A DNA stretch of 64,000 nt from Eledone cirrhosa (lineage: Eukaryota): NCBI GenBank assembly GCA_964016885.1, contig OZ024745.1, forward strand, positions 11,904,001 through 11,968,000, given 5' to 3'. The position numbers and the translations under genes are program-made. Under the pieces are notes generated by a model. It saw nothing but the letters and a program-made list of their open reading frames with translations, searched no databases and was not told the origin of the DNA. Every line of letters begins with the position of its first letter. Positions within the stretch are counted from its first letter, which is position 1. Positions 3,421 to 64,000 of this stretch are shown here, piece after piece.

Positions 3421-4054
3421 TGCAAATAAATCCCCTTTTTTGTACTGTTGACCATGTTATTCTCCACTTTTTCAATTTTATTACTCCAAGATAAACTTAC
3501 ATAGGAATACAAGTGAAATCATAAACTCGTCATCCACGTATACCTCTTATTGAGTCATACAACGCTGTACGCTAAAACTATCCATGATAAGAAGTATTCG
3601 CAACCTCTAATCGGATTACCTTTAACGATATCTTGTTATCCTCTCTCTCTCTATATATATATATATATAAAGAGAGCTACATACATACATCTAAAGTAAG
3701 GAAATATATATTTTTTAGAATTTTCAACATCAATATGTCACGCTTGACTGAGAAATGGAAAATTTTGATAGCGACAATGGTAAAATTTAAAATAACTTTC
3801 TTCTAACAATCTGAACTTCATTTAATAGATAATAAACTAATTAACAACTAAACACTGCTATGAAAAACACGACCTTTCAGTTTCCAAGTAAACTATATCT
3901 CTTATAAGCGGGAATTTACGCTTGACAGACGATCAATATGAATGTTAATACGAAACTGTACTACATGTCTGTAAAGACGTTATCTTGGATTGTTTCTTCA
4001 ATTTCTGTTCTTAGCAAAATGACTATCACTCACTTAATTAGATATATATGTGTG

Positions 4055-4113
<59 letters not shown>

Positions 4114-4119
4114 ATATAT

Positions 4120-4268
4120 AACAAAGAGGGTGTGGTAAGATTCCAGGTGGACCAAAATGCACCAGAGTACTTGATACTTTGGATAGTAGAGTGAGTAATA
4201 TGAACGAGTTCAGATCTAGCTGTCGAAACGGCCGGAGACCAGCTGTCGGGGTCTTGAATCTTTTCATA
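4120..4268. mobile_element. (TA)n-embedded half-hammerhead element (family H)
   Basis: Similar to 16840-17023 and 27535-27723; contains GAAACGGC..GCTGTC-GGGGTC; flanked by (TA)n on both sides. Confidence 0.75.
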
Positions 4269-4349
4269 TATATATATATATGAGAGAGAGAGAGTGGGGG
4301 ATAAGAAAATGCAAAGTAGTTTCAGATTTTAAAGTCCTTTATTTATAAG

Positions 4350-4424
4350 GCTATTATATATATTTCAATGACGACAGTGGCCACGTGATTCCGCCTAACC
4401 AGTGCCATGATCTCATCAGACAGC
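4350..4424 (-). ncRNA. Type I hammerhead ribozyme
   Basis: Minus strand reads GCTGT-CTGATGA-GATCATGGCA...TGTCGTCATT-GAAA-TATATATA-ATAGC; stem I GCTGT/ATAGC, extended stem II, palindromic stem III, AUA site. A 5'-half relative lies at about 27760-27797(-). Confidence 0.75.
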
Positions 4425-4789
4425 TTCTTACATAATACGGTTACGTTCTCGAGGGAATGGTCAAAGATGATGTTCTTGAGAGAGAGACAGAGAACTTTTT
4501 CTCTGTAGGAAATGACCTTCGCCAGCCAATATTTATATGCATAAAGACTATAAGCTTTTAGTTTATTTTCGTCTTAGCATCCAAGAGAGGTTAACCCCTG
4601 TGACGAAGGATAAAGAACCAGAAACAGTGCCACCAGGGTGCTCTCCCTTTATAACTAAGATAATGGTGAATAAATCACCGCTTCTAAAATTCATAGTGAG
4701 GCTACAAAAATGTTTATTTAGATGAATATTTCGTATATAATTCAATATACCACCCCAGTCATATATATAGATATATATAGATATATGAC

Positions 4790-5676
4790 TGGGAAGAGAT
4801 ATATTAGATATGTCTCATTTGAAATAATACAGCCAATTCTCCACGCAATACTTTTAGTTAGCACCCCGAACACATAATTGGGAGTATAATCACTTATTTC
4901 CTAATGTTTGTTGAGTGAGTTGGAATTTGGCCGGAGTATCGCTAAAAAGCTTTCTCCGATATTGTATTTATTTACTTACTCTTGGCGCAGCAGATTTGAA
5001 AAAAATTCCCGGTATAAGGTTAGCATCTCTTTGTTTATTTTTATATATGAATATTGATTTTCCTTATATCTCATTCTGTTATTTTGCCCGAGAAAATATC
5101 TGTGTGTGTCATCAAATGTTGTACACACATAGATATTTTTTCAATTTCCAATTGAGTTCTTAGCACGTGGCCTGAATTCCTTTCAGAGTTCATTGTCACG
5201 CGCATGTATTGTTTTTTTTTGCGTTAATTCACTTCCTGGTTTTTTGAATCAGTTCGAGCACTTCTTTCAGAACTGCTGGACTGGCAACCTGACAGATACC
5301 TCAGGCACAGAAAGTGATTTTCGCTAAATGCTGATGTTGGTTAGATTATCAATATTAGTATTATTGGGGCACCCACTGATGAATTATAGGAGCCCACTTG
5401 AATATATATCTATTGATGGTATACAAGCTCCTACATAAATTGGTATAATTTCACCCAACTTGTAGGAATCCTATAATGAAACGAGACGTCCGTCTGGGAA
5501 GAGATATATTAGATATGTCTCATTTGAAATAATACAGCCAATTTTCCACGCAATACTTTTAGTTAGCACCCCGAACACATAATTGGGAATATAATCACTT
5601 ATTTCCTAATGTTTGTTGAGTAAGTTGGAATTTGGCCGGAGTATCGCTAAAAAGCTTTCTCCGATATTGTATTTAT
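4790..5676 (+). mobile_element. Non-coding HHR-bearing element: 705-nt unit plus about 180-bp direct repeat (retrozyme/pLTR-like)
   Basis: 4790-4971 is repeated at 5495-5676 (TGGGAAGAGATATATTAG...CCGATATTGTATTTAT); ends in (TA)n. Confidence 0.85.
5372..5498 (+). ncRNA. Type I hammerhead ribozyme with branched stem II
   Basis: CCCA-CTGATGA(5376-5382)-ATTATAGGA...TCCTATAAT-GAAA(5478-5481)-CG-AGACGTC-CGTC-TGGG; perfect 9-bp stem II base; GUC cleavage after 5494. Confidence 0.88.
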
Positions 5677-5797
5677 ATATATATATATATATATATTAGA
5701 AAGTGAGGTTTTTTTTACAAAATGAAAAATAACCGAGGTGTCCTACACGAGTGGAAGTATAAAGAAAAAGAGATGAAATCGAAAATGCAACTGAAGT

Positions 5798-5830
<33 letters not shown>

Positions 5831-5848
5831 ATATATATTTATTTGGTT

Positions 5849-5886
5849 CCTTTACCGGTTTCGCAGTTCTTCTGCTTTTCAAAAGG
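5849..5886 (-). ncRNA. Minimal hammerhead, U3-A8 core variant (mirror copy)
   Basis: Reverse complement of 5963-6000. Confidence 0.65.
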
Positions 5887-5962
5887 TGAGTTGAGATGGA
5901 GGGTCTGTGGTTTTTCTCACATCTCAGATGTGAGAAAACCACAGACCCTCCATCTCAACTCA

Positions 5963-6000
5963 CCTTTTGAAAAGCAGAAGAACTGCGAAACCGGTAAAGG
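5963..6000 (+). ncRNA. Minimal hammerhead, U3-A8 core variant
   Basis: CCTT-TTGAAAA-GCAG-AAGAA-CTGC-GAAA-CCGGT-A-AAGG: all three stems pair; GUA site. Confidence 0.65.
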
Positions 6001-6018
6001 AACCAAATAAATATATAT

Positions 6019-6050
<32 letters not shown>

Positions 6051-6200
6051 CTTCAGTTGCATTTTCGATTTCATCTCTTTTTCTTTATATATATAGTTTT
6101 GCGAGGTTTTTTATATGAAATCGTGTGTCGAAACAAATATTGTTATACTTGGGGAGGGTCATATTTGTGTAATATTGCCAGAATTAATAACAGAACACAC

Positions 6201-9200
6201 ACAAGTTGAACGACTAAAACACACAATAACAGTTAATATGAAAAGAACAACATACACAAAAGTCAACGAACTTTACAGACAGAAACGCATTAACGGTAAG
6301 GAAGTCCAAAATCTCACCACACCAAACGAAAGGGATGACTTCATGAGCGTCATCCGACGTGAAATGAAATACGCCCGAAACGAATGCAATAGGCATTTCA
6401 ATAAGAAATTAGAATGGATGAATAAGAAAAAACTACAAGAAAGGAAAATAGAATATTCTCAAAAATACCCAGATAACATCAACAATATCCGTATGACTGA
6501 TGTAAAACTACCGGAAGAATTTACCAATGACCACACAGTAAATATTTATGGGAACACTTTAATCAGTGAACAAGAACAATAAATCCTGCAGCTACCACCA
6601 AAATTTGCCATCTACAAAAAGATTAACCCTATTGAGTGCAAAACGTATCTGGAAAAGTGTTTCACAAAAATACGTTGGAATGCAAAAGTAAACAACAACA
6701 ACAACAATAATAACGGTAGTAGTAATATAAACAATAACTCTGAGTATAGAAATAACAGCCATAACAATAACAATAGCAGAAGAGTGAGAAATAGTAATAA
6801 TGGTAATAATACTAACGATAGACAGAACAACAACAACAACCACAATAATAATAATAATAGAAACATTAACCACAGACACAGCGACCACAGTAGTAATAAC
6901 GGTAATAATACGAACAACAACAACAACCACAGTGGAAATAATGGAAATAATACATGTAGCAACATTAATGATAGACACAACAAAAACAAGAAACATAATA
7001 AAAGTAACAACCACAATGGTAGAAATAACAGTAACAACAACAATAGCGGTGAAGTAAACAACAATCACAGCAAATCTATCTAGCAATCATCTAGCAATCC
7101 TAACAATAATAATAATGCTAATGATAGGAACAACAACAACCACCATAATAACAATAATAGCAACACACACAACTATGACGATAGATATAATGACAACCCT
7201 TAGAGAAACTATTTTTCAACCCAGCTGACAAAACATAAGATGGGTAATATCTATCCTACGAGGTTACCCTTTAATAAAAGAGTTTGCATACCACAACAAA
7301 TAGATGACGAGACAGAGGTACAGTTCACCATAGCTAGAAATAAGATTAGACAAATAGTAGACCGGTATACTAAGAGACAGAGCAGTCCAGAGGCCCAACA
7401 ACTTGGGAGGAAACCTGTAGAAGGCTTAGTTAGCCTCAAGCAGAGCACAAGGGATGGTGAGGTAGTATGTCTACCCACAGATAAGTCTGGTAGGATGTCA
7501 ATAGATAGCATGCCGAACTACATCAAGGCTATGCAACCCCACATCACCAACACGAGCGAAATTGCACAGCAAACACATGATGGGAGAGAGAAAATCCTCA
7601 ACGCTCACATGATGTGGACTGACATCCTAAAGCCAAGCAGACGCACTGCCAACAATTTCCAGGCGTCTAACAATGGCATACCACCCTTGTATGGGCTCCG
7701 CAAAGACCACAAGACAGTCGACGACCCGACAACAGGACCACCAACAAGACCCGTATGCGGAGCTAATATAGCTAGCAACTACAGGATCTCCTACTTCCTC
7801 TCAATGGTTATACGCCCCATAATCTAGATGTCCCCAGATGTATGTGACAGTACAGAGGACCTCCTCAGCAGAATCAGTGAGTGCAACAACAACAAAATCA
7901 GGAACCTATCCAACTGCATAATAGGCAGCATGGATGTGGTATCACTGTACCCATCCATTAACATTGATTTTGCTGTGGAAAAATGTGTGGAGATGATCAT
8001 TGAGAGTGAGGTGGAGTTCTGCGACGTCGACACAAACGAACTGGGCCTCCTACTTAGACTTACCTACGACACTGACTACCTAGACAGCCATGACCTTAGA
8101 CGTTTCTGCCCTAGTAGACCCATAAGAGGTAGACGCCCCACCATAACCTCCATGGCAAAAAAGACTCCCATGAGAAGGTGGATTGGGTGGACCAAAGCTA
8201 TACGGACCCCCCAAAACAATGATCAAGTAAGAAAAATGGTCGCACATGCAATAGGGGCTAGTATCAAAACTACCCTAAAGGGCTACACATTCAAGTTCAA
8301 CGAGAAGATCTACACCCAAAATGAGGGAGCATCCATTGGCGTCAGCATAGCTGGTGATGTTGCCAACCTTTTTATGGTATGGTGGGAAAGGAGACTTAAA
8401 GATCTCCTTAATGAGAGCTCCATAGACCTCATCATGTACTCTCGTTACGTAGACGATATCAATATAGTTATAAGAACATGCCCACTAGAGAGCACTAACA
8501 AGTTTGATTTAGAACGTAGCACAATGGAAAGCATCCAGCAGATAGCTAATTCCATACACCAGAGTATAACTGTAACTATCGACTACCCTTCCAAACACCC
8601 TAACAATAGACTACCTGTATTAGACACAGAACTCTTGATTAACACTATAGACGAGAGAGCCCAAATTCTCCACTCACACTATACTAAACCCATGGCCTCC
8701 AAATACCTGATACTCAAAAACTCAGCAATGTCCAGTAGTGCTAAGTTTAATATTCTGATCGCAGATTTGGTACGAGTGATGAAGAATGTGTCCCGCATGT
8801 GCGACCCAACAGAAGTGGAAAGACACATCCAACACTTCATCAACCGCATGCAGTTCTCTGGCTACAACCAAAGAGACAGAGTCAGAGTATACGAAGGAGC
8901 CATGGAGAAGTATAAGACCATCATAGAGGAATTTGCCCATTATACAGGAGCAAATCCTGGAATAGCTTAGATAGGGCTAGACATAAGATAGGGAAAGCCA
9001 CCTCATGGTACGACAACCAGAGATACCAGAGTGTCATGTTTGTGGATGCTACCCCTGGAGGGAAATTAGCTAACCAGTGTAGAAAGGCCCTGAGAAAGAC
9101 CCACTTAAAGATTAAGGTGGTAGAAAAGCCAGGAACCACCATAAAATCCCTGATCAGCAAAACCTACCCTTTTAAGAAAACCCACTGTACTAATAGGAAG

Positions 9201-9588
9201 TGTATCATATGTAAGGTAAACTCCCGGATAAACTGTAAAACTAGAAACGTAATCTATAGCATAAGATGTACAGAGGGTACTTGCAGAAACATGACAACAA
9301 CATACATAGGTGAAACAGCTCGTAGCATAGGTGAAAGGATAGACCAACACTGGGCGGAACTAAAAGGACGAAAAAACGGGTCAGTACTATACGAACATGC
9401 CAGACAACAACACGACGGTAACATAGACAACATAGAAATTAGAATAATATCTAAACATAGAAATGACCCAGCAGATAGGTGAATCAGAGAGGCCAGTGAA
9501 ATAGAACTTAGAAGGCCAAGACTAAACAGAAAGAATGAATGGAATAACAACACCACCCAAACAAACAACACTGACCTAAGAGAAGTAT
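6201..9588 (+). pseudogene. Disrupted PLE polyprotein ORF
   Basis: ORF pieces starting at 6115, 6784, 7240 and 7828 share one frame, with stops at about 6580, 7081 and 7825; frameshift near 8930 into the GIY-YIG piece 9036-9482. Confidence 0.88.
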
Positions 9589-9912: not shown

Positions 9913-10105
9913 TATATGTGTTTGTGTCTATATTGTATCTGTATTATTTTTGACCGTTGGTCAGTCAATGGCAGCATTGAGGACCGCATAAATTTTATTA
10001 CCGATATAAAAGATAAAGAAGCGAAAAGCGAAAACCAAACAAACAGTGAGTGTGTTCTGTTATTAATTCTGGCAATATTACACAAATATGACCCTCCCCA
10101 AGTAT

Positions 10106-10192
<87 letters not shown>

Positions 10193-10197
<5 letters not shown>

Positions 10198-11300
10198 ATA
10201 CTTTGGGAGAGTCATGTTGCCAATAAGAAACACACGCACCAGTTGCTTTCACTTCAATTTATTATATATTTATAAATTTATAAATTTACAAATCCACAAA
10301 TTTATAAATTTCTGGTTGGTTGGTTGGTTCCACAACCAGATAGTTGTTTATATATAGTCATAGTCCTTTCGTCACACACTCTGTGACCTCTTCAGTGACT
10401 GGGGATTCCTTTCTTTGTTTCTGTGCCTTCCCTTTCTTCTGTCCTACGCCATTTTGTTTCTGTGTGTGTGTTGTGTGCTCAGTTTGCGCATGCGCCACAT
10501 CCGAGTGTCTGTGTGTGTTTGTGTTCATTTATCTATTTGTTTATTTATTTATTTATTTACATGTTATTGGTTGGTTGTTTGTTCTATGTGTGTGTGTGTT
10601 TTCATTTTGTCCTTAATTGTAAGTTGTGATATTGCTGTTCCACTCATATTTTCTATTTAATTTTGGTTGTAATTCTTTTATGTTTATTGCCTCTGTAATT
10701 TGTCTAAACATTGCATCTTTTCTGTGTGTAGATTCTATTTTTATTTCTATGTTCTCTAATTTACCCTTGTGTTCTATCTTAGCATGTTGGTAGAGTACAG
10801 ATGATTCTTTATTATCTTGAAGGTCTCGCCAGTGTTCATTTATCCGTTCCCCTATACTACGAGCTGTCTCACCTATGTACACTATATTTTTGTTTCTACA
10901 TTGTCCTTCAGTACATCTTATGCTATACACTACATTTCTAGTTTTACAGTTAATATGGGGGCTTATTTTACAGGTTATACTTTTCTTATCTATACATGAG
11001 CTTCTTTGAAACGGGTATGTCTTGCTAATAAGTGTTTTTACGGAGGTACCTGGTCTTTCTACTATCTTAATATGGAGTTTATGTTTATTTAGGGCCCTTC
11101 TAAATTTGTAGGCTAGTTCGCCTCTAGGGGTTGTATCGATGAACATTACACTCTGGTATTTATTGCTATCATACCATGAGTTTATTCTATTGGCCTTGTT
11201 CCTAGTTCTTTCTATTCTATTCCAAAATTTGCTCCTATACAAGGGGCAGGTCCCATTTATGTCATTATTTACCATTTTTTCCCATTTGGTTCTGGCTCCT
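10193..11300 (-). mobile_element. 5'-truncated Penelope-like element (GIY-YIG part plus 3' pLTR)
   Basis: ORF 10613-11545 contains VMFIDTTPRGELA, NVVYSIRC and VYIGETARSIGERI, a diverged homologue of 9036-9482; its 3' terminus TGACTCTCCCAAAGTATAACAA-(TA)n resembles that of the first element. Confidence 0.92.
10356..10400 (-). ncRNA. Minimal type I hammerhead in PLE 3' pLTR
   Basis: AGTCA-CTGAAGA-G-GTCACA-GAGTG-TGTGAC-GAAAG-GA-CTA-TGACT; perfect stems I and II; CUA site. Confidence 0.85.
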
Positions 11301-11410
11301 CTATGAGAGGATGAGAGAGGAGGAGAAATGAGTGAGAGAGAGAGAGAGAAATAGCCTTTAAAACAGAGAAAGGAAAAGGGATAAAAAGAAGAAAGATAGG
11401 GGATCACAAC

Positions 11411-11446
<36 letters not shown>

Positions 11447-52089: not shown

Positions 52090-55000
52090 GACGGTGAATT
52101 GTCAGAGTCTTTAGAGAGTCAGATAGAATACCTTGCAGTATTTGGTCTGGCTCTCTCTGTGTGAATTGTCAGAGTCTTTAGAGAGTCAGATAGAATACCT
52201 TGCAGTATTTGGTCTGGCTCTCTCTGTGGGGATTGGCAGAGTCTATAGAGAGTCAGATAGAATACCTTGCAGTATTTGGTCTGGCTCTCTCTGTGTGAAT
52301 TGTCAGAGTCTTTAGAGAGTCAGATAGAATACCTTGCAGTATTTGGTCTGGCTCTCTCTGTGTGAATTGTCAGAGTCTTTAGAGAGTCAGATAGAATACC
52401 TTGCAGTATTTGGTCTGGCTCTCTCTGTGGGGATTGGCAGAGTCTATAGAGAGTCAGATAGAATACCTTGCAGTATTTGGTCTGGCTCTCTCTGTGTGAA
52501 TTGTCAGAGTCTTTAGAGAGTCAGATAGAATACCTTGCAGTATTTGGTCTGGCTCTCTCTGTGGGGATTGGCAGAGTCTATAGAGAGTCAGATAGAATAC
52601 CTTGCAGTATTTGGTCCGGCTCTCTCTGTGTGAATTGTCAGAGTCTTTAGAGAGTCAGATAGAATACCTTGCAGTATTTGGTCTGGCTCTCTCTGTGGGG
52701 ATTGTCAGAGTCTTTAGAGAGTCAGATAGAATACCTTGCAGTATTTGGTCCGGCTCTCTCTGTGTGAATTGTCAGAGTGTTTAGAGAGTCAGATAGAATA
52801 CCTTGCAGTATTTGGTCTGGCTCTCTCTGTGGGGATTGGCAGAGTCTATAGAGAGTCAGATAGAATACCTTGCAGTATTTGGTCTGGCTCTCTCTGTGTG
52901 AATTGTCAGAGTGTTTAGAGAGTCAGATAGAATACCTTGCAGTATTTGGTCCGGCTCTCTCTGTGGGGATTGTCAGAGTGTTTAGAGAGTCAGAGAGAAT
53001 ACCTTGCAGTATTTGGTCCGGCTCTCTCTGTGGGGATTGTCAGAGTCTTTAGAGAGTCAGATAGAATACCTTGCAGTATTTGGTCTGGCTCTCTCTGTGT
53101 GAATTGTCAGAGTGTTTAGAGAGTCAGAGAGAATACCTTGCAGTATTTGGTCTGGCTCTCTCTGTGGGGATTGTCAGAGTCTTTAGAGAGTCAGATAGAA
53201 TACCTTGCAGTATTTGGTCTGGCTCTCTCTGTGTGAATTGTCAGAGTGTTTAGAGAGTCAGAGAGAATACCTTGCAGTATTTGGTCTGGCTCTCTCTGTG
53301 TGAATTGTCAGAGTCTTTAGAGAGTCAGATAGAATACCTTGCAGTATTTGGTCCGGCTCTCTCTGTGGGGATTGGCAGAGTCTTTAGAGAGTCAGATAGA
53401 ATACCTTGCAGTATTTGGTCTGGCTCTCTCTGTGGGGATTGTCAGAGTCTTTAGAGAGTCAGATAGAATACCTTGCAGTATTTGGTCTGGCTCTCTCTGT
53501 GTGAATTGTCAGAGTGTTTAGAGAGTCAGAGAGAATACCTTGCAGTATTTGGTCCGGCTCTCTCTGTGGGGATTGTCAGAGTCTTTAGAGAGTCAGATAG
53601 AATACCTTGCAGTATTTGGTCCGGCTCTCTCTGTGGGGATTGTCAGAGTGTTTAGAGAGTCAGAGAGAATACCTTGCAGTATTTGGTCCGGCTCTCTCTG
53701 TGGGGATTGTCAGAGTCTTTAGAGAGTCAGATAGAATACCTTGCAGTATTTGGTCCGGCTCTCTCTGTGGGGATTGTCAGAGTGTTTAGAGAGTCAGATA
53801 GAATACCTTGCAGTATTTGGTCTGGCTCTCTCTGTGTGAATTGTCAGAGTGTTTAGAGAGTCAGATAGAATACCTTGCAGTATTTGGTCCGGCTCTCTCT
53901 GTGTGAATTGTCAGAGTCTTTAGAGAGTCAGATAGAATACCTTGCAGTATTTGGTCTGGCTCTCTCTGTGGGGATTGTCAGAGTGTTTAGAGAGTCAGAT
54001 AGAATACCTTGCAGTATTTGGTCCGGCTCTCTCTGTTAATTGTCAGAGTCTTTAGAGAGTCAGATAGAATACCTTGCAGTATTTGGTCCGGCTCTCTCTG
54101 TGGGAATTGTCAGAGTCTTTAGAGAGTCAGATAGAATACCTTGCAGTATTTGGTCCGGCTCTCTCTGTGGGGATTGTCAGAGTCTTTAGAGAGTCAGATA
54201 GAATACCTTGCAGTATTTGGTCCGGCTCTCTCTGTGGGGATTGTCAGAGTCTTTAGAGAGGCAGATAGAATACCTTGCAGTATTTGGTCCGGCTCTCTCT
54301 GTGTGAATTGGCAGAGTCTTTAGAGAGTCAGATAGAATACCTTGCAGTATTTGGTCTGGCTCTCTCTGTGGGGATTGTCAGAGTCTTTAGAGAGTCAGAT
54401 AGAATACCTTGCAGTATTTGGTCCGGCTCTCTCTGTGGGGATTGTCAGAGTCTTTAGAGAGTCAGATAGAATACCTTGCAGTATTTGGTCCGGCTCTCTC
54501 TGTGGGGATTGTCAGAGTCTTTAGAGAGTCAGATAGAATACCTTGCAGTATTTGGTCCGGCTCTCTCTGTGGGGATTGTCAGAGTCTTTAGAGAGTCAGA
54601 TAGAATACCTTGCAGTATTTGGTCCGGCTCTCTCTGTGGGGATTGTCAGAGTCTTTAGAGAGTCAGATAGAATACCTTGCAGTATTTGGTCCGGCTCTCT
54701 CTGTGGGGATTGTCAGAGTCTTTAGAGAGTCAGATAGAATACCTTGCAGTATTTGGTCCGGCTCTCTCTGTGGGGATTGTCAGAGTCTTTAGAGAGTCAG
54801 ATAGAATACCTTGCAGTATTTGGTCCGGCTCTCTCTGTGGGGATTGTCAGAGTCTTTAGAGAGTCAGATAGAATACCTTGCAGTATTTGGTCCGGCTCTC
54901 TCTGTGGGGATTGTCAGAGTCTTTAGAGAGTCAGATAGAATACCTTGCAGTATTTGGTCCGGCTCTCTCTGTGGGGATTGTCAGAGTCTTTAGAGAGTCA

Positions 55001-58000
55001 GATAGAATACCTTGCAGTATTTGGTCCGGCTCTCTCTGTGGGGATTGTCAGAGTGTTTAGAGAGTCAGATAGAATACCTTGCAGTATTTGGTCCGGCTCT
55101 CTCTGTGGGGATTGTCAGAGTCTTTAGAGAGTCAGATAGAATACCTTGCAGTATTTGGTCCGGCTCTCTCTGTGGGGATTGTCAGAGTCTTTAGAGAGTC
55201 AGATAGAATACCTTGCAGTATTTGGTCCGGCTCTCTCTGTGGGGATTGTCAGAGTCTTTAGAGAGTCAGATAGAATACCTTGCAGTATTTGGTCCGGCTC
55301 TCTCTGTGGGGATTGTCAGAGTCTTTAGAGAGTCAGATAGAATACCTTGCAGTATTTGGTCCGGCTCTCTCTGTGGGGATTGTCAGAGTGTTTAGAGAGT
55401 CAGATAGAATACCTTGCAGTATTTGGTCCGGCTCTCTCTGTGGGAATTGTCAGAGTGTTTAGAGAGTCAGATAGAATACCTTGCAGTATTTGGTCCGGCT
55501 CTCTCTGTGGGGATTGTCAGAGTGTTTAGAGAGTCAGATAGAATACCTTGCAGTATTTGGTCCGGCTCTCTCTGTGGGGATTGTCAGAGTGTTTAGAGAG
55601 TCAGATAGAATACCTTGCAGTATTTGGTCCGGCTCTCTCTGTGTGAATTGGCAGAGTCTTTAGAGAGTCAGATAGAATACCTTGCAGTATTTGGTCCGGC
55701 TCTCTCTGTGGGGATTGTCAGAGTCTTTAGAGAGTCAGATAGAATACCTTGCAGTATTTGGTCTGGCTCTCTCTGTATCAATTGTCAGAGTGTTTAGAGA
55801 GTCAGATAGAATACCTTGCAGTATTTGGTCCGGCTCTCTCTGTGGGGATTGTCAGAGTCTTTAGAGAGTCAGATAGAATACCTTGCAGTATTTGGTCTGG
55901 CTCTCTCTGTATCAATTGTCAGAGTGTTTAGAGAGTCAGATAGAATACCTTGCAGTATTTGGTCCGGCTCTCTCTGTGGGGATTGTCAGAGTCTTTAGAG
56001 AGTCAGATAGAATACCTTGCAGTATTTGGTCCGGCTCTCTCTGTGGGGATTGTCAGAGTCTTTAGAGAGTCAGATAGAATACCTTGCAGTATTTGGTCTG
56101 GCTCTCTCTGTGGGGATTGTCAGAGTCTTTAGAGAGTCAGATAGAATACCTTGCAGTATTTGGTCCGGCTCTCTCTGTGGGGATTGTCAGAGTCTTTAGA
56201 GAGTCAGATAGAATACCTTGCAGTATTTGGTCTGGCTCTCTCTGTGGGGATTGTCAGAGTCTTTAGAGAGTCAGATAGAATACCTTGCAGTATTTGGTCC
56301 GGCTCTCTCTGTGGGGATTGTCAGAGTCTTTAGAGAGTCAGATAGAATACCTTGCAGTATTTGGTCTGGCTCTCTCTGTGGGGATTGTCAGAGTGTTTAG
56401 AGAGTCAGATAGAATACCTTGCAGTATTTGGTCCGGCTCTCTCTGTGGGGATTGTCAGAGTCTTTAGAGAGTCAGATAGAATACCTTGCAGTATTTGGTC
56501 TGGCTCTCTCTGTGGGGATTGTCAGAGTCTTTAGAGAGTCAGATAGAATACCTTGCAGTATTTGGTCTGGCTCTCTCTGTGGGGATTGTCAGAGTCTTTA
56601 GAGAGTCAGATAGAATACCTTGCAGTATTTGGTCCGGCTCTCTCTGTGGGAATTGTCAGAGTGTTTAGAGAGTCAGATAGAATACCTTGCAGTATTTGGT
56701 CTGGCTCTCTCTGTGGGGATTGTCAGAGTGTTTAGAGAGTCAGATAGAATACCTTGCAGTATTTGGTCTGGCTCTCTCTGTGGGGATTGTCAGAGTCTTT
56801 AGAGAGTCAGATAGAATACCTTGCAGTATTTGGTCTGGCTCTCTCTGTGGGGATTGTCAGAGTCTTTAGAGAGTCAGATAGAATACCTTGCAGTATTTGG
56901 TCTGGCTCTCTCTGTGGGGATTGTCAGAGTCTTTAGAGAGTCAGATAGAATACCTTGCAGTATTTGGTCTGGCTCTCTCTGTGGGGATTGTCAGAGTCTT
57001 TAGAGAGTCAGATAGAATACCTTGCAGTATTTGGTCCGGCTCTCTCTGTGGGAATTGTCAGAGTGTTTAGAGAGTCAGATAGAATACCTTGCAGTATTTG
57101 GTCTGGCTCTCTCTGTGGGGATTGTCAGAGTCTTTAGAGAGTCAGATAGAATACCTTGCAGTATTTGGTCTGGCTCTCTCTGTGGGGATTGTCAGAGTCT
57201 TTAGAGAGTCAGATAGAATACCTTGCAGTATTTGGTCCGGCTCTCTCTGTGGGGATTGTCAGAGTCTTTAGAGAGTCAGATAGAATACCTTGCAGTATTT
57301 GGTCTGGCTCTCTCTGTGGGAATTGTCAGAGTGTTTAGAGAGTCAGATAGAATACCTTGCAGTATTTGGTCCGGCTCTCTCTGTGGGAATTGTCAGAGTG
57401 TTTAGAGAGTCAGATAGAATACCTTGCAGTATTTGGTCCGGCTCTCTCTGTGGGAATTGTCAGAGTGTTTAGAGAGTCAGATAGAATACCTTGCAGTATT
57501 TGGTCCGGCTCTCTCTGTGGGAATTGTCAGAGTGTTTAGAGAGTCAGATAGAATACCTTGCAGTATTTGGTCCGGCTCTCTCTGTGGGAATTGTCAGAGT
57601 GTTTAGAGAGTCAGATAGAATACCTTGCAGTATTTGGTCCGGCTCTCTCTGTGGGAATTGTCAGAGTGTTTAGAGAGTCAGATAGAATACCTTGCAGTAT
57701 TTGGTCCGGCTCTCTCTGTGGGAATTGTCAGAGTGTTTAGAGAGTCAGATAGAATACCTTGCAGTATTTGGTCCGGCTCTCTCTGTGGGAATTGTCAGAG
57801 TGTTTAGAGAGTCAGATAGAATACCTTGCAGTATTTGGTCCGGCTCTCTCTGTGGGAATTGTCAGAGTGTTTAGAGAGTCAGATAGAATACCTTGCAGTA
57901 TTTGGTCCGGCTCTCTCTGTGGGAATTGTCAGAGTGTTTAGAGAGTCAGATAGAATACCTTGCAGTATTTGGTCCGGCTCTCTCTGTGGGAATTGTCAGA

Positions 58001-61000
58001 GTGTTTAGAGAGTCAGATAGAATACCTTGCAGTATTTGGTCCGGCTCTCTCTGTGGGAATTGTCAGAGTGTTTAGAGAGTCAGATAGAATACCTTGCAGT
58101 ATTTGGTCCGGCTCTCTCTGTGGGAATTGTCAGAGTGTTTAGAGAGTCAGATAGAATACCTTGCAGTATTTGGTCCGGCTCTCTCTGTGGGAATTGTCAG
58201 AGTGTTTAGAGAGTCAGATAGAATACCTTGCAGTATTTGGTCCGGCTCTCTCTGTGGGGATTGTCAGAGTCTTTAGAGAGTCAGATAGAATACCTTGCAG
58301 TATTTGGTCCGGCTCTCTCTGTGGGAATTGTCAGAGTGTTTAGAGAGTCAGATAGAATACCTTGCAGTATTTGGTCTGGCTCTCTCTGTGGGGATTGTCA
58401 GAGTCTTTAGAGAGTCAGATAGAATACCTTGCAGTATTTGGTCTGGCTCTCTCTGTGGGGATTGTCAGAGTCTTTAGAGAGTCAGATAGAATACCTTGCA
58501 GTATTTGGTCTGGCTCTCTCTGTGGGGATTGTCAGAGTCTTTAGAGAGTCAGATAGAATACCTTGCAGTATTTGGTCTGGCTCTCTCTGTGGGGATTGTC
58601 AGAGTCTTTAGAGAGTCAGATAGAATACCTTGCAGTATTTGGTCTGGCTCTCTCTGTGGGGATTGTCAGAGTGTTTAGAGAGTCAGATAGAATACCTTGC
58701 AGTATTTGGTCCGGCTCTCTCTGTGGGGATTGTCAGAGTGTTTAGAGAGTCAGAGAGAATACCTTGCAGTATTTGGTCTGGCTCTCTCTGTGGGGATTGT
58801 CAGAGTCTTTAGAGAGTCAGATAGAATACCTTGCAGTATTTGGTCTGGCTCTCTCTCTGTGAATTGTCAGAGTCTTTAGAGAGTCAGATAGAATACCTTG
58901 CAGTATTTGGTCTGGCTCTCTCTGTGGGGATTGTCAGAGTGTTTAGAGAGTCAGATAGAATACCTTGCAGTATTTGGTCCGGCTCTCTCTGTGGGGATTG
59001 TCAGAGTGTTTAGAGAGTCAGAGAGAATACCTTGCAGTATTTGGTCTGGCTCTCTCTGTGGGAATTGTCAGAGTCTTTAGAGAGTCAGATAGAATACCTT
59101 GCAGTATTTGGTCTGGCTCTCTCTCTGTGAATTGTCAGAGTCTTTAGAGAGTCAGATAGAATACCTTGCAGTATTTGGTCTGGCTCTCTCTGTGTGGGGA
59201 TTGTCAGAGTCTTTAGAGAGTCAGATAGAATACCTTGCAGTATTTGGTCCGGCTCTCTCTGTGGGGATTGTCAGAGTCTTTAGAGAGTCAGATAGAATAC
59301 CTTGCAGTATTTGGTCCGGCTCTCTCTGTATCAATTGTCAGAGTCTTTAGAGAGTCAGATAGAATACCTTGCAGTATTTGGTCCGGCTCTCTCTGTGGGG
59401 ATTGTCAGAGTGTTTAGAGAGTCAGATAGAATACCTTGCAGTATTTGGTCTGGCTCTCTCTGTATCAATTGTCAGAGTCTTTAGAGAGTCAGATAGAATA
59501 CCTTGCAGTATTTGGTCCGGCTCTCTCTGTGGGGATTGTCAGAGTCTTTAGAGAGTCAGATAGAATACCTTGCAGTATTTGGTCCGGCTCTCTCTGTGGG
59601 GATTGGCAGAGTGTTTAGAGAGTCAGATAGAATACCTTGCAGTATTTGGTCTGGCTCTCTCTGTGGGGATTGTCAGAGTCTTTAGAGAGTCAGATAGAAT
59701 ACCTTGCAGTATTTGGTCCGGCTCTCTCTGTGGGGATTGTCAGAGTGTTTAGAGAGTCAGATAGAATACCTTGCAGTATTTGGTCCGGCTCTCTCTGTGG
59801 GGATTGTCAGAGTGTTTAGAGAGTCAGATAGAATACCTTGCAGTATTTGGTCCGGCTCTCTCTGTGGGGATTGTCAGAGTCTTTAGAGAGTCAGATAGAA
59901 TACCTTGCAGTATTTGGTCCGGCTCTCTCTGTGGGGATTGTCAGAGTGTTTAGAGAGTCAGATAGAATACCTTGCAGTATTTGGTCTGGCTCTCTCTGTG
60001 GGGATTGTCAGAGTGTTTAGAGAGGCAGATAGAATACCTTGCAGTATTTGGTCTGGCTCTCTCTCTGTGAATTGTCAGAGTCTATAGAGAGTCAGATAGA
60101 ATACCTTGCAGTATTTGGTCCGGCTCTCTCTGTGGGGATTGTCAGAGTCTTTAGAGAGTCAGATAGAATACCTTGCAGTATTTGGTCTGGCTCTCTCTGT
60201 GGGGATTGTCAGAGTCTTTAGAGAGTCAGATAGAATACCTTGCAGTATTTGGTCCGGCTCTCTCTGTGTGAATTGGCAGAGTGTTTAGAGAGTCAGATAG
60301 AATACCTTGCAGTATTTGGTCCGGCTCTCTCTGTGTGAATTGGCAGAGTGTTTAGAGAGTCAGATAGAATACCTTGCAGTATTTGGTCCGGCTCTCTCTG
60401 TGGGGATTGTCAGAGTGTTTAGAGAGTCAGATAGAATACCTTGCAGTATTTGGTCCGGCTCTCTCTGTATCAATTGTCAGAGTCTTTAGAGAGTCAGATA
60501 GAATACCTTGCAGTATTTGGTCTGGCTCTCTCTGTGTGGGGATTGGCAGAGTCTTTAGAGAGTCAGATAGAATACCTTGCAGTATTTGGTCTGGCTCTCT
60601 CTGTGGGGATTGGCAGAGTGTTTAGAGAGTCAGATAGAATACCTTGCAGTATTTGGTCCGGCTCTCTCTGTGGGAATTGTCAGAGTCTTTAGAGAGTCAG
60701 ATAGAATACCTTGCAGTATTTGGTCTGGCTCTCTCTGTGTGGGGATTGGCAGAGTCTTTAGAGAGTCAGATAGAATACCTTGCAGTATTTGGTCCGGCTC
60801 TCTCTGTGGGGATTGGCAGAGTGTTTAGAGAGTCAGATAGAATACCTTGCAGTATTTGGTCCGGCTCTCTCTGTGGGAATTGTCAGAGTCTTTAGAGAGT
60901 CAGATAGAATACCTTGCAGTATTTGGTCTGGCTCTCTCTGTGTGGGGATTGGCAGAGTCTTTAGAGAGTCAGATAGAATACCTTGCAGTATTTGGTCTGG

Positions 61001-64000
61001 CTCTCTCTGTGGGGATTGGCAGAGTGTTTAGAGAGTCAGATAGAATACCTTGCAGTATTTGGTCCGGCTCTCTCTGTGGGAATTGTCAGAGTCTTTAGAG
61101 AGTCAGATAGAATACCTTGCAGTATTTGGTCCGGCTCTCTCTGTGGGGATTGGCAGAGTGTTTAGAGAGTCAGATAGAATACCTTGCAGTATTTGGTCCG
61201 GCTCTCTCTGTGGGGATTGTCAGAGTCTTTAGAGAGTCAGATAGAATACCTTGCAGTATTTGGTCCGGCTCTCTCTGTGGGGATTGTCAGAGTGTTTAGA
61301 GAGTCAGATAGAATACCTTGCAGTATTTGGTCCGGCTCTCTCTGTGGGGATTGTCAGAGTGTTTAGAGAGTCAGATAGAATACCTTGCAGTATTTGGTCC
61401 GGCTCTCTCTGTGGGGATTGTCAGAGTGTTTAGAGAGTCAGATAGAATACCTTGCAGTATTTGGTCCGGCTCTCTCTGTGGGAATTGTCAGAGTGTTTAG
61501 AGAGTCAGATAGAATACCTTGCAGTATTTGGTCTGGCTCTCTCTGTGGGGATTGTCAGAGTGTTTAGAGAGGCAGATAGAATACCTTGCAGTATTTGGTC
61601 TGGCTCTCTCTCTGTGAATTATCAGAGTCTATAGAGAGTCAGATAGAATACCTTGCAGTATTTGGTCCGGCTCTCTCTGTGGGGATTGTCAGAGTCTTTA
61701 GAGAGTCAGATAGAATACCTTGCAGTATTTGGTCCGGCTCTCTCTGTGGGGATTGTCAGAGTCTTTAGAGAGTCAGAGAGAATACCTTGCAGTATTTGGT
61801 CTGGCTCTCTCTGTGGGGATTGTCAGAGTGTTTAGAGAGTCAGATAGAATACCTTGCAGTATTTGGTCCGGCTCTCTCTGTGGGGATTGTCAGAGTCTTT
61901 AGAGAGTCAGATAGAATACCTTGCAGTATTTGGTCCGGCTCTCTCTGTGGGGATTGTCAGAGTGTTTAGAGAGTCAGATAGAATACCTTGCAGTATTTGG
62001 TCCGGCTCTCTCTGTGGGGATTGTCAGAGTGTTTAGAGAGTCAGATAGAATACCTTGCAGTATTTGGTCCGGCTCTCTCTGTGGGGATTGTCAGAGTGTT
62101 TAGAGAGTCAGATAGAATACCTTGCAGTATTTGGTCCGGCTCTCTCTGTGGGGATTGTCAGAGTGTTTAGAGAGTCAGATAGAATACCTTGCAGTATTTG
62201 GTCCGGCTCTCTCTGTGTGAATTGTCAGAGTGTTTAGAGAGTCAGATAGAATACCTTGCAGTATTTGGTCCGGCTCTCTCTGTGGGGATTGTCAGAGTGT
62301 TTAGAGAGTCAGATAGAATACCTTGCAGTATTTGGTCTGGCTCTCTCTGTATCAATTGTCAGAGTCTTTAGAGAGTCAGATAGAATACCTTGCAGTATTT
62401 GGTCCGGCTCTCTCTGTGGGGATTGTCAGAGTGTTTAGAGAGTCAGATAGAATACCTTGCAGTATTTGGTCCGGCTCTCTCTGTGTGAATTGTCAGAGTG
62501 TTTAGAGAGTCAGATAGAATACCTTGCAGTATTTGGTCCGGCTCTCTCTGTGTGAATTGTCAGAGTGTTTAGAGAGTCAGATAGAATACCTTGCAGTATT
62601 TGGTCTGGCTCTCTCTGTATCAATTGTCAGAGTCTTTAGAGAGTCAGATAGAATACCTTGCAGTATTTGGTCTGGCTCTCTCTGTGGGAATTGTCAGAGT
62701 GTTTAGAGAGTCAGATAGAATACCTTGCAGTATTTGGTCTGGCTCTCTCTGTATCAATTGTCAGAGTGTTTAGAGAGTCAGATAGAATACCTTGCAGTAT
62801 TTGGTCTGGCTCTCTCTGTATCAATTGTCAGAGTGTTTAGAGAGTCAGATAGAATACCTTGCAGTATTTGGTCTGGCTCTCTCTGTATCAATTGTCAGAG
62901 TGTTTAGAGAGTCAGATAGAATACCTTGCAGTATTTGGTCTGGCTCTCTCTGTATCAATTGTCAGAGTGTTTAGAGAGTCAGATAGAATACCTTGCAGTA
63001 TTTGGTCTGGCTCTCTCTGTATCAATTGTCAGAGTGTTTAGAGAGTCAGATAGAATACCTTGCAGTATTTAGTCCGGCTCTCTCTGTATCAATTGTCAGA
63101 GTCTATAGAGAGTCAGATAGAATACCTTGCAGTATTTAGTCCGGCTCTCTCTGTATCAATTGTCAGAGTCTTTAGAGAGTCAGATAGAATACCTTGCATT
63201 ATTTGGTCCGGCTCTCTCTGTGGGGATTGTCAGAGTCTTTAGAGAGTCAGATAGAATACCTTGCATTATTTGGTCCGGCTCTCTCTGTGGGGATTGTCAG
63301 AGTCTTTAGAGAGTCAGATAGAATACCTTGCAGTATTTGGTCTGGCTCTCTCTCTGTGAATTGTCAGAGTCTTTAGAGAGTCAGATAGAATACCTTGCAG
63401 TATTTGATCTGGCTCTCTCTGTGGGAATTGTCAGAGTGTTTAGAGAGTCAGATAGAATACCTTGCAGTATTTGATCTGGCTCTCTCTGTGGGAATTGTCA
63501 GAGTCTTTAGAGAGTCAGATAGAATACCTTGCAGTATTTGATCTGGCTCTCTCTGTGGGAATTGTCAGAGTGTTTAGAGAGTCAGATAGAATACCTTGCA
63601 GTATTTGGTCCGGCTCTCTCTGTGGGGATTGTCAGAGTCTTTAGAGAGTCAGATAGAATACCTTGCATTATTTGGTCCGGCTCTCTCTGTGGGGATTGTC
63701 AGAGTCTTTAGAGAGTCAGATAGAATACCTTGCAGTATTTGGTCTGGCTCTCTCTGTGGGGATTGTCAGAGTCTTTAGAGAGTCAGATAGAATACCTTGC
63801 ATTATTTGGTCCGGCTCTCTCTGTGGGGATTGTCAGAGTCTTTAGAGAGTCAGATAGAATACCTTGCATTATTTGGTCCGGCTCTCTCTGTGGGGATTGT
63901 CAGAGTCTTTAGAGAGTCAGATAGAATACCTTGCAGTATTTGGTCCGGCTCTCTCTGTGGGAATTGTCAGAGTCTTTAGAGAGTCAGATAGAATACCTTG
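52090..64000 (+). repeat. 67-bp satellite array (about 178 units, runs off window end)
   Basis: Unit GGGATTGTCAGAGTCTTTAGAGAGTCAGATAGAATACCTTGCAGTATTTGGTCCGGCTCTCTCTGTG; ORF period 67. Confidence 0.98.

Follow-up and report, generated by a model that had tools for sequence, protein, structure and literature searches.

An excess of 5' junctions at the predicted hammerhead cleavage site in a 705-nt repeat family of Eledone cirrhosa

Metazoan non-LTR retrozymes, as described in the accessible parts of two studies, are non-coding head-to-tail units that each carry a type I hammerhead ribozyme, have a GC content below 50%, are highly self-paired and occur alongside Penelope-like elements (PMC7229834; bioRxiv 10.64898/2026.07.22.740005). 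Their length is 150-450 bp in the former study (Cervera and de la Pena 2020) and spans 51-972 bp in the latter (Li, Clavereau and Pollet), where a Penelope origin is proposed for them and where no in vitro cleavage was seen for eight of nine retrozyme dimers from Xenopus; the accessible text of neither maps insertion ends relative to the cleavage site. The second group of described systems comprises PAc of Anolis and other Penelope-like elements, which form a partial tandem structure (pLTR) with a hammerhead located upstream of a fixed, internal 3' end, insert into AT-rich or (TA)n targets, and have read-through of the ribozyme as the main outcome (PMC11167929, PMC8557442, in the parts available). 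In PAc, reverse transcription starts inside the RNA downstream of the hammerhead, mostly on uncleaved RNA, and insertion in vitro does not need the ribozyme (PMC11167929). Tails, a bias towards (TA)n and non-autonomous elements that form pLTRs have also been described (PMC8557442). In R2, self-cleavage by a 5' HDV-like ribozyme sets the template's 5' end, and where the cut falls at the end of the element the junctions vary through microhomology priming (PMC3774820, available part). Whether hammerheads in Penelope-like elements and in animal retrozymes cut in vivo, and which RNA form the reverse transcriptase (RT) uses, are called open questions in the accessible text of PMC7761336, PMC4209133 and PMC11167929. 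A literature search, with most subscription papers out of reach, returned no paper whose title, abstract opening or accessible text places the insertion ends of retrozymes or Penelope elements relative to the cut of the hammerhead.

Here we describe a repeat family of Eledone cirrhosa that shares the structural features listed above for retrozymes, and the pLTR, hammerhead position, target type and predominant read-through listed for Penelope-like elements. Its 705-nt unit falls inside the 51-972 bp range and is longer than 150-450 bp. The family differs from metazoan retrozymes in the 77-nt branched insert of stem II and in that most copies are dispersed and 5'-truncated, sharing a single fixed 3' end in (TA)n, and from Penelope-like elements in that the unit has no ORF. 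For PAc, the accessible text reports no RNA-seq reads ending at the cleavage site (PMC11167929), whereas the genomic copies in Eledone show a minority peak there. R2 belongs to another ribozyme class, is autonomous and has a fixed 28S target, and its cleavage marks the element 5' end as a rule (PMC3774820) but in Eledone in a minority of copies. Assignment to the plant LTR retrozymes, which have a type III hammerhead in their LTRs, a PBS, a PPT and a 4-bp target-site duplication, was rejected: the topology is type I and no duplication is resolvable. With a probability of roughly 0.72, we read the insert as a copy of a 705-nt hammerhead family, likely a retrozyme, copied by a Penelope-like RT that passed through a first junction and at the next likely ran off the cut end.

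Layout of the insert and its hammerhead motif

The analysed window is a 64-kb stretch of the genome (64,000 nt), and positions below refer to it; +1 denotes the first base 3' of the predicted cut. The direct repeat of about 180 bp announced in the original prediction is present at 4789-4974 and 5494-5679 (186 nt, 98% identical, spacing 705). The 705 nt given there as the length of the element proved to be that of the repeat unit, the whole insert measuring ~890 nt, and tandem units at other loci abut in the same register as the unit defined here. The unit contains no sense-strand ATG-started ORF of at least 40 aa and its predicted fold is unusually stable (z = -8.3; none of 20 shuffles as good); GC content is 0.34 over 4001-6000.

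The upstream repeat opens at the same TGGGAAGAG as the cut site, in agreement with a start at the predicted cut. The accompanying claim of at most 1 nt of further similarity upstream gives way to an ambiguity of up to 3 nt: the junction reads GAC|UGGG, and the flank GAC matches the element GTC in two of three bases; thus its start may lie at +1, -1 or -3. No target-site duplication is resolvable at this insert. The AT-rich hairpin just inside the cut contains the ATATAT microhomology at which many other copies start, and the 3' end of the tail would correspond to the start of reverse transcription. The window copy carries one ribozyme and could not itself release a monomer.

Table 1. Features of the insert and its hammerhead in the window
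Feature	Position	Strand	Remarks
Complete repeat unit, from one predicted cut to the next	4790..5494	+	705 nt, non-coding, strongly structured
Repeat copy 1	4789..4974	+	5' junction at predicted cut, ambiguous -3 to +1
Repeat copy 2 (tail), cut to the family's fixed 3' end	5495..5679	+	
(TA)n target, 3' side	5674..5696	.	
TA-rich microsatellite, 5' side of target	4761..4786	.	
AT-rich hairpin, 9 bp, just inside the cut	4796..4816, again 5501-5521	+	predicted in three subfamilies
Type I hammerhead ribozyme motif	5372..5498	+	predicted cut GUC/UGGG after C5494
Hammerhead stem I	5372-5375 (CCCA) / 5495-5498 (TGGG)	+	read directly
Hammerhead core CTGATGA (CUGAUGA)	5376-5382	+	read directly
Hammerhead stem II, 9 bp	5383-5391/5469-5477	+	encloses 77-nt branched insert
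Hammerhead GAAA	5478-5481	+	read directly
Hammerhead stem III, 3 bp	5481-5483/5491-5493	+	loop AGACGTC
Cleavage triplet GTC	5492-5494	+	read directly
Competing hairpin UGGG-GCA-CCCA	5365..5375	+	predicted; would tie up stem I's 5' strand

All parts of the predicted hammerhead were read in the sequence, its stems covary, and it is the sole match of a hammerhead descriptor on both strands of the window (no match in 10 block shuffles), confirming the motif and its predicted cut as originally placed. A search of Rfam for a hammerhead gave no match, either at the gathering score or for E values of up to 10; the 77-nt insert in stem II is the probable reason. Between subfamilies, both sides changed in 7 of 31 stem pairs, one of them in stem I, in a set of eight hand-picked rows from four subfamilies with the structure taken from the window copy; none of 500 shuffles scored as high. 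The core is nearly invariant across about 100 units; in the eight rows the free core position 7 varies. These compensatory changes and the variable position 7 indicate that the motif has been kept as an RNA structure, for which cleavage is predicted.

In context, the active hammerhead fold is not favoured by thermodynamic folding, and this counts against our preferred reading. In three longer contexts the competing hairpin is predicted to form with a pair probability of 0.6-0.9 versus 0.00-0.01 for stem I, which reaches 0.44-0.85 once that hairpin is left out; stem III has 0.00-0.02 in context, and the constrained hammerhead fold lies 8 kcal/mol above the minimum.

Several other repeats were observed in the window and among the fetched loci. 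Further hammerhead motifs lie in other repeats (L219:1620, L220:1796, L055:1683, L129 and L136:1136), two of them with long stem II inserts like that of the 705-nt family, and an RT frame lies downstream of the motif in L219. A common dispersed repeat between TA runs (4122-4265), with several more copies in the window, has a degenerate hammerhead-like look (GAAAC ... GTC). The window also contains a fold-back with 114-nt perfect arms (5758-6089), the left part of which recurs in more than 10 fetched loci, an endonuclease-domain fragment of a different Penelope-like family (10613-11560, minus strand), a weak tRNA-like match (26737-26796, minus strand) and a 67-nt satellite of 178 copies (52098-64000).

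Copies of the family in the genome

The search for the element in the 3.0-Gb genome gave 2,501 candidates; a 25-mer close to its 3' end has 905 exact matches, and exact read-through junctions number 1,029. The first 100 of the 905 matches in order of position gave, after merging of tandem matches, a sample of 86 insertions. Among 90 alignment chains, 84 stop at unit position 170-195, and 81 of these precede TA-rich sequence; this fixed 3' end bears out the proposed pLTR-type nature of the partial repeat. The 5' ends in the sample are graded truncations with a median length of 402 nt. Arrays of 2 to about 5 head-to-tail units exist at other loci, and two full ribozymes are present in 6 of the 86 insertions. 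Two young subfamilies deviate by 1.7% and 2.4% from their own consensus, and older ones are about 83% and 70-74% identical. In the search for a partner, the fetched loci gave only four distant, non-coding relatives. DNA contigs from three sequencing runs of one study show the family at high copy number, and none of these pieces spans the 5' junction.

Taken together, 5' truncation, a partial tandem structure, insertion into TA and an internal 3' end that is fixed match Penelope-like elements, and the element is likely a non-autonomous non-LTR retrozyme. Intact Penelope-like elements flanked by TA are present in the genome. As to an autonomous partner, the unit has no similarity to L217-L220 (four loci: the neighbouring Penelope-like family described below and two other hammerhead-bearing repeats), and it shares no sequence with that family beyond TA-rich stretches.

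A very different history, in which the family moves or grows as DNA (as an expanding satellite, by cut-and-paste or as rolling-circle DNA) and merely carries the ribozyme along, would account for the tandem arrays, for one array with signs of local duplication (L004) and for the long arrays of the second family described below. It is hardly credible in view of the dispersed copies with fixed 3' ends and graded 5' truncation and of the compensatory changes in RNA stems, all of which fit an RNA intermediate.

A decayed Penelope-like element adjoins the insert (6097-9560, plus strand, with an inverted end near 10048-10110) and contains an RT, a C-terminal GIY-YIG-type region and an Asn-rich insert. 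Its family (L217, L218) has 14,479 candidates, including intact 1,217-aa frames, and its 4,118-nt tandem units are 99.98% identical, which points to a very young family.

5' ends at the predicted cleavage site

Junctions were listed by patterns displaying the upstream bases, and the rows were classed by eye. An unselected list of 100 matches contained 94 read-through junctions, 4 starts at +1/+2 and 2 at -3 to -6. A genome-wide list of 95 junctions without G at -3 includes 38 that start at +1/+2, each of them verified in the fetched DNA, and 4 that start at -2/-1. Of the rows set aside, 45 are read-through junctions bearing small indels or point changes, 3 have a junction to other sequence of the element, 4 lack the element downstream and 1 was left out. 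Two of the 38 exact starts (L154 and L155) are identical and may represent one event. Exact starts thus amount to about 38 of 1,120 junctions (3.4%), a slight undercount, as the pattern filters exclude some copies, that of the window included. In three loci (L135, L180, L181) internal element sequence is joined straight to +1, by template jumps or microhomology deletions.

From the neighbouring positions about 3.6 ends would be expected at +1/+2 (Poisson p about 1e-25), the exact starts at the cut being about ten times as frequent as the neighbouring rate. The control list for -16..-3 gave 22 ends among the first 100 of 114 matches listed, and the equally T-headed pair -6/-5 has 7 ends compared with the 38 (binomial p 3e-6). 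On the other side, 0 ends were found at +3 and 1 at +4 among the first 100 of 178 matches listed (about half the genome), showing that the peak is sharp. The T at +1 may derive from the TA target, so that +1 and +2 are indistinguishable.

A broader cluster at +5 to +14, largest at +10, coincides with ATATAT homology to the TA target and comprises 47-53 ends among the first 100 of 178 matches listed, an estimated 15% or so of passes. The lists for +3..+14 and 605-620 required a leading W on a consensus G or C, which enriches truncated copies and makes the denominators estimates. In the sample of 86 insertions, ends fall in the zone -2..+15 in 10 of 69 first passes (8 without two ambiguous ones) and 3 of 12 second passes, a stop rate of 0.009-0.015 per nt versus 0.002 overall; of the 25 insertions with the highest scores, 10 have their second-pass stop in this zone (9 of 24 if the window copy is set aside). 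About 80% of passes read through the predicted cut site. Elsewhere in the unit, the TA run at 612-620 (zone 605-620) has about 8 ends genome-wide and the AT-rich hairpin zone 538-552 about 33, with at most 6 at one base. An apparent second hot spot at 543-551 (6 ends in the sample) was dropped, the roughly 33 genome-wide ends being spread over 15 nt.

These distributions bear on the possibility that the 5' end in the window is an ordinary truncation, produced by RT drop-off, random or at the +7..+27 hairpin, and joined by microhomology, so that the match to the cut is coincidental. We consider this improbable and already weakened at the family level. The mostly scattered 5' ends, the position of the largest cluster (+10) on ATATAT and the partial match of flank and element at the window junction speak for it, and at about 0.2% per nt roughly one in six exact-looking ends would arise by chance. 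However, 38 ends at +1/+2 share a homology of one T, when the equal T positions -2 and -6 give 4 and 7 ends, and the longer TA run at 612-620 yields few; stalling caused by the hairpin should occur at its 3' base, close to +27.

Copies with exact starts occur in at least three subfamilies. On a tree of 35 stop and 50 read-through rows there are 21 label changes, the two kinds of copies being interleaved, and exact-start copies therefore arose many times independently. The stop label is mildly clustered (6 of 500 shuffles as low), partly owing to the choice of rows. A single short master for the +1 copies was rejected, given the scatter of stop copies over the family tree. Nearly all exact-start copies (36 of 38) are single-pass, with about 185 nt; five second-pass ones were seen (the window copy, L006, L007, L024 and L026). 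A sharp 5' peak in several subfamilies might likewise arise if +1 were the transcription start of an internal promoter rather than a cleavage end. We regard this as very improbable, since the start would have to coincide with the exact base predicted by a covarying hammerhead.

The original prediction took the locus for a footprint of in vivo cleavage that defines the RNA's 5' end; it looked for a pile-up of 5' ends at the cut in other copies and named random starts as evidence against it. Both patterns are present. The pile-up is sharp but comprises only 3.4% of junctions, and most copies read through the site or start at scattered positions. Cleavage would thus define the 5' end in a minority of copies only, and their junctions at the cut are likely a DNA record of ribozyme cutting in the germ line.

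GUU performs poorly as a cleavage triplet. A second retrozyme-like family, with a 465-467-nt unit and a minimal hammerhead with a CTAG loop (L131:252-1052, L025, L036), has 7,442 junction matches in the genome and a GUU site in 95 of 100 junctions listed. Two ends at +1/+2 were seen among the first 100 of 453 variant matches listed, standing for roughly 1,600 junctions. This mostly GUU family has no +1/+2 peak among the matches listed, in a single comparison. Its arrays reach 20 or more units, with head-to-head inversions, and its 3' ends seem to be two, lying some 234 and 303 nt beyond the site; DNA recombination may have lengthened the long arrays, in which case its denominator would be inflated. 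A 472-nt tandem repeat in the window (15655-16787; 2.4 copies, 99% identical) is not this family by BLAST and has no hammerhead descriptor match.

Template form and significance

According to the preferred reading, a Penelope-type RT/GIY-YIG protein would nick (TA)n and initiate internally on the RNA, some 185 nt beyond the cut, by analogy with PAc in vitro. The ribozyme would cut only a fraction of junctions, leaving about one fifth of passes to end at or just inside the site and four fifths to read on. By analogy with R2, cDNA running off the cut end would join the target flush (+1/+2) or, more often, would be trimmed to the ATATAT microhomology at +5 to +14 before joining. Read-through transcription of any copy with one ribozyme would lead to release of a 3' fragment beginning at +1 and containing the RT start, and this would account for the predominance of single-pass exact copies. 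The window copy would have needed a template with two junctions, either a tandem transcript or a circle. Since about five in six exact-looking ends exceed the background, its 5' end was likely, though not surely, made by cleavage, as far as can be judged from the DNA sequence.

Another version of the template is a ligated circle, on which the RT stalls each round at the ligation junction (e.g. at a 2'-5' bond or a leftover phosphate). The peak would still record cleavage, though not a free 5' end. Circles are the main RNA form in coral, mussel and axolotl, according to the accessible part of PMC7229834, and in Eledone the stop rate is not lower on the second pass in either set of insertions given above. 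Rare variants are common to the units of one insertion 17 times versus 1.65 expected, in 12 of 33 loci, five complex loci being left out of this test; arrays of up to about five units exist, and C at -1 is kept in three of five second-pass copies. The constant stop rate and the shared variants fit a tandem transcript as well, as one that is partly cleaved predicts both. Against circles, units diverge by 3.2% within an insertion and by 4.2% between insertions, minor-allele comparisons are discordant in 32 of 97 cases, the array L004 may be a local duplication, and few insertions hold two full ribozymes. On balance we consider the ligated circle rather unlikely. It is an even bet, in our estimate, that the 5'-junction profile can be taken as a fossil read-out of cleavage in the germ line, with about one fifth of RT passes stopping at the cut or just inside it in each round in the GUC family and almost none in the GUU family.

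The class of element and, from R2, the principle are known, whereas the junction statistics are new; the finding is thus a useful data point rather than a new system. The base-precise excess of ends at the predicted cut, found across subfamilies, provides indirect evidence that cleaved RNA served as a template in the germ line, and the fixed tail ties a retrozyme to Penelope-type internal initiation. Junction counting is a cheap assay for any assembled genome. If the interpretation is true, assemblies alone could suffice to order Penelope-type hammerheads by their in vivo activity and to distinguish cut linear templates from circular ones.
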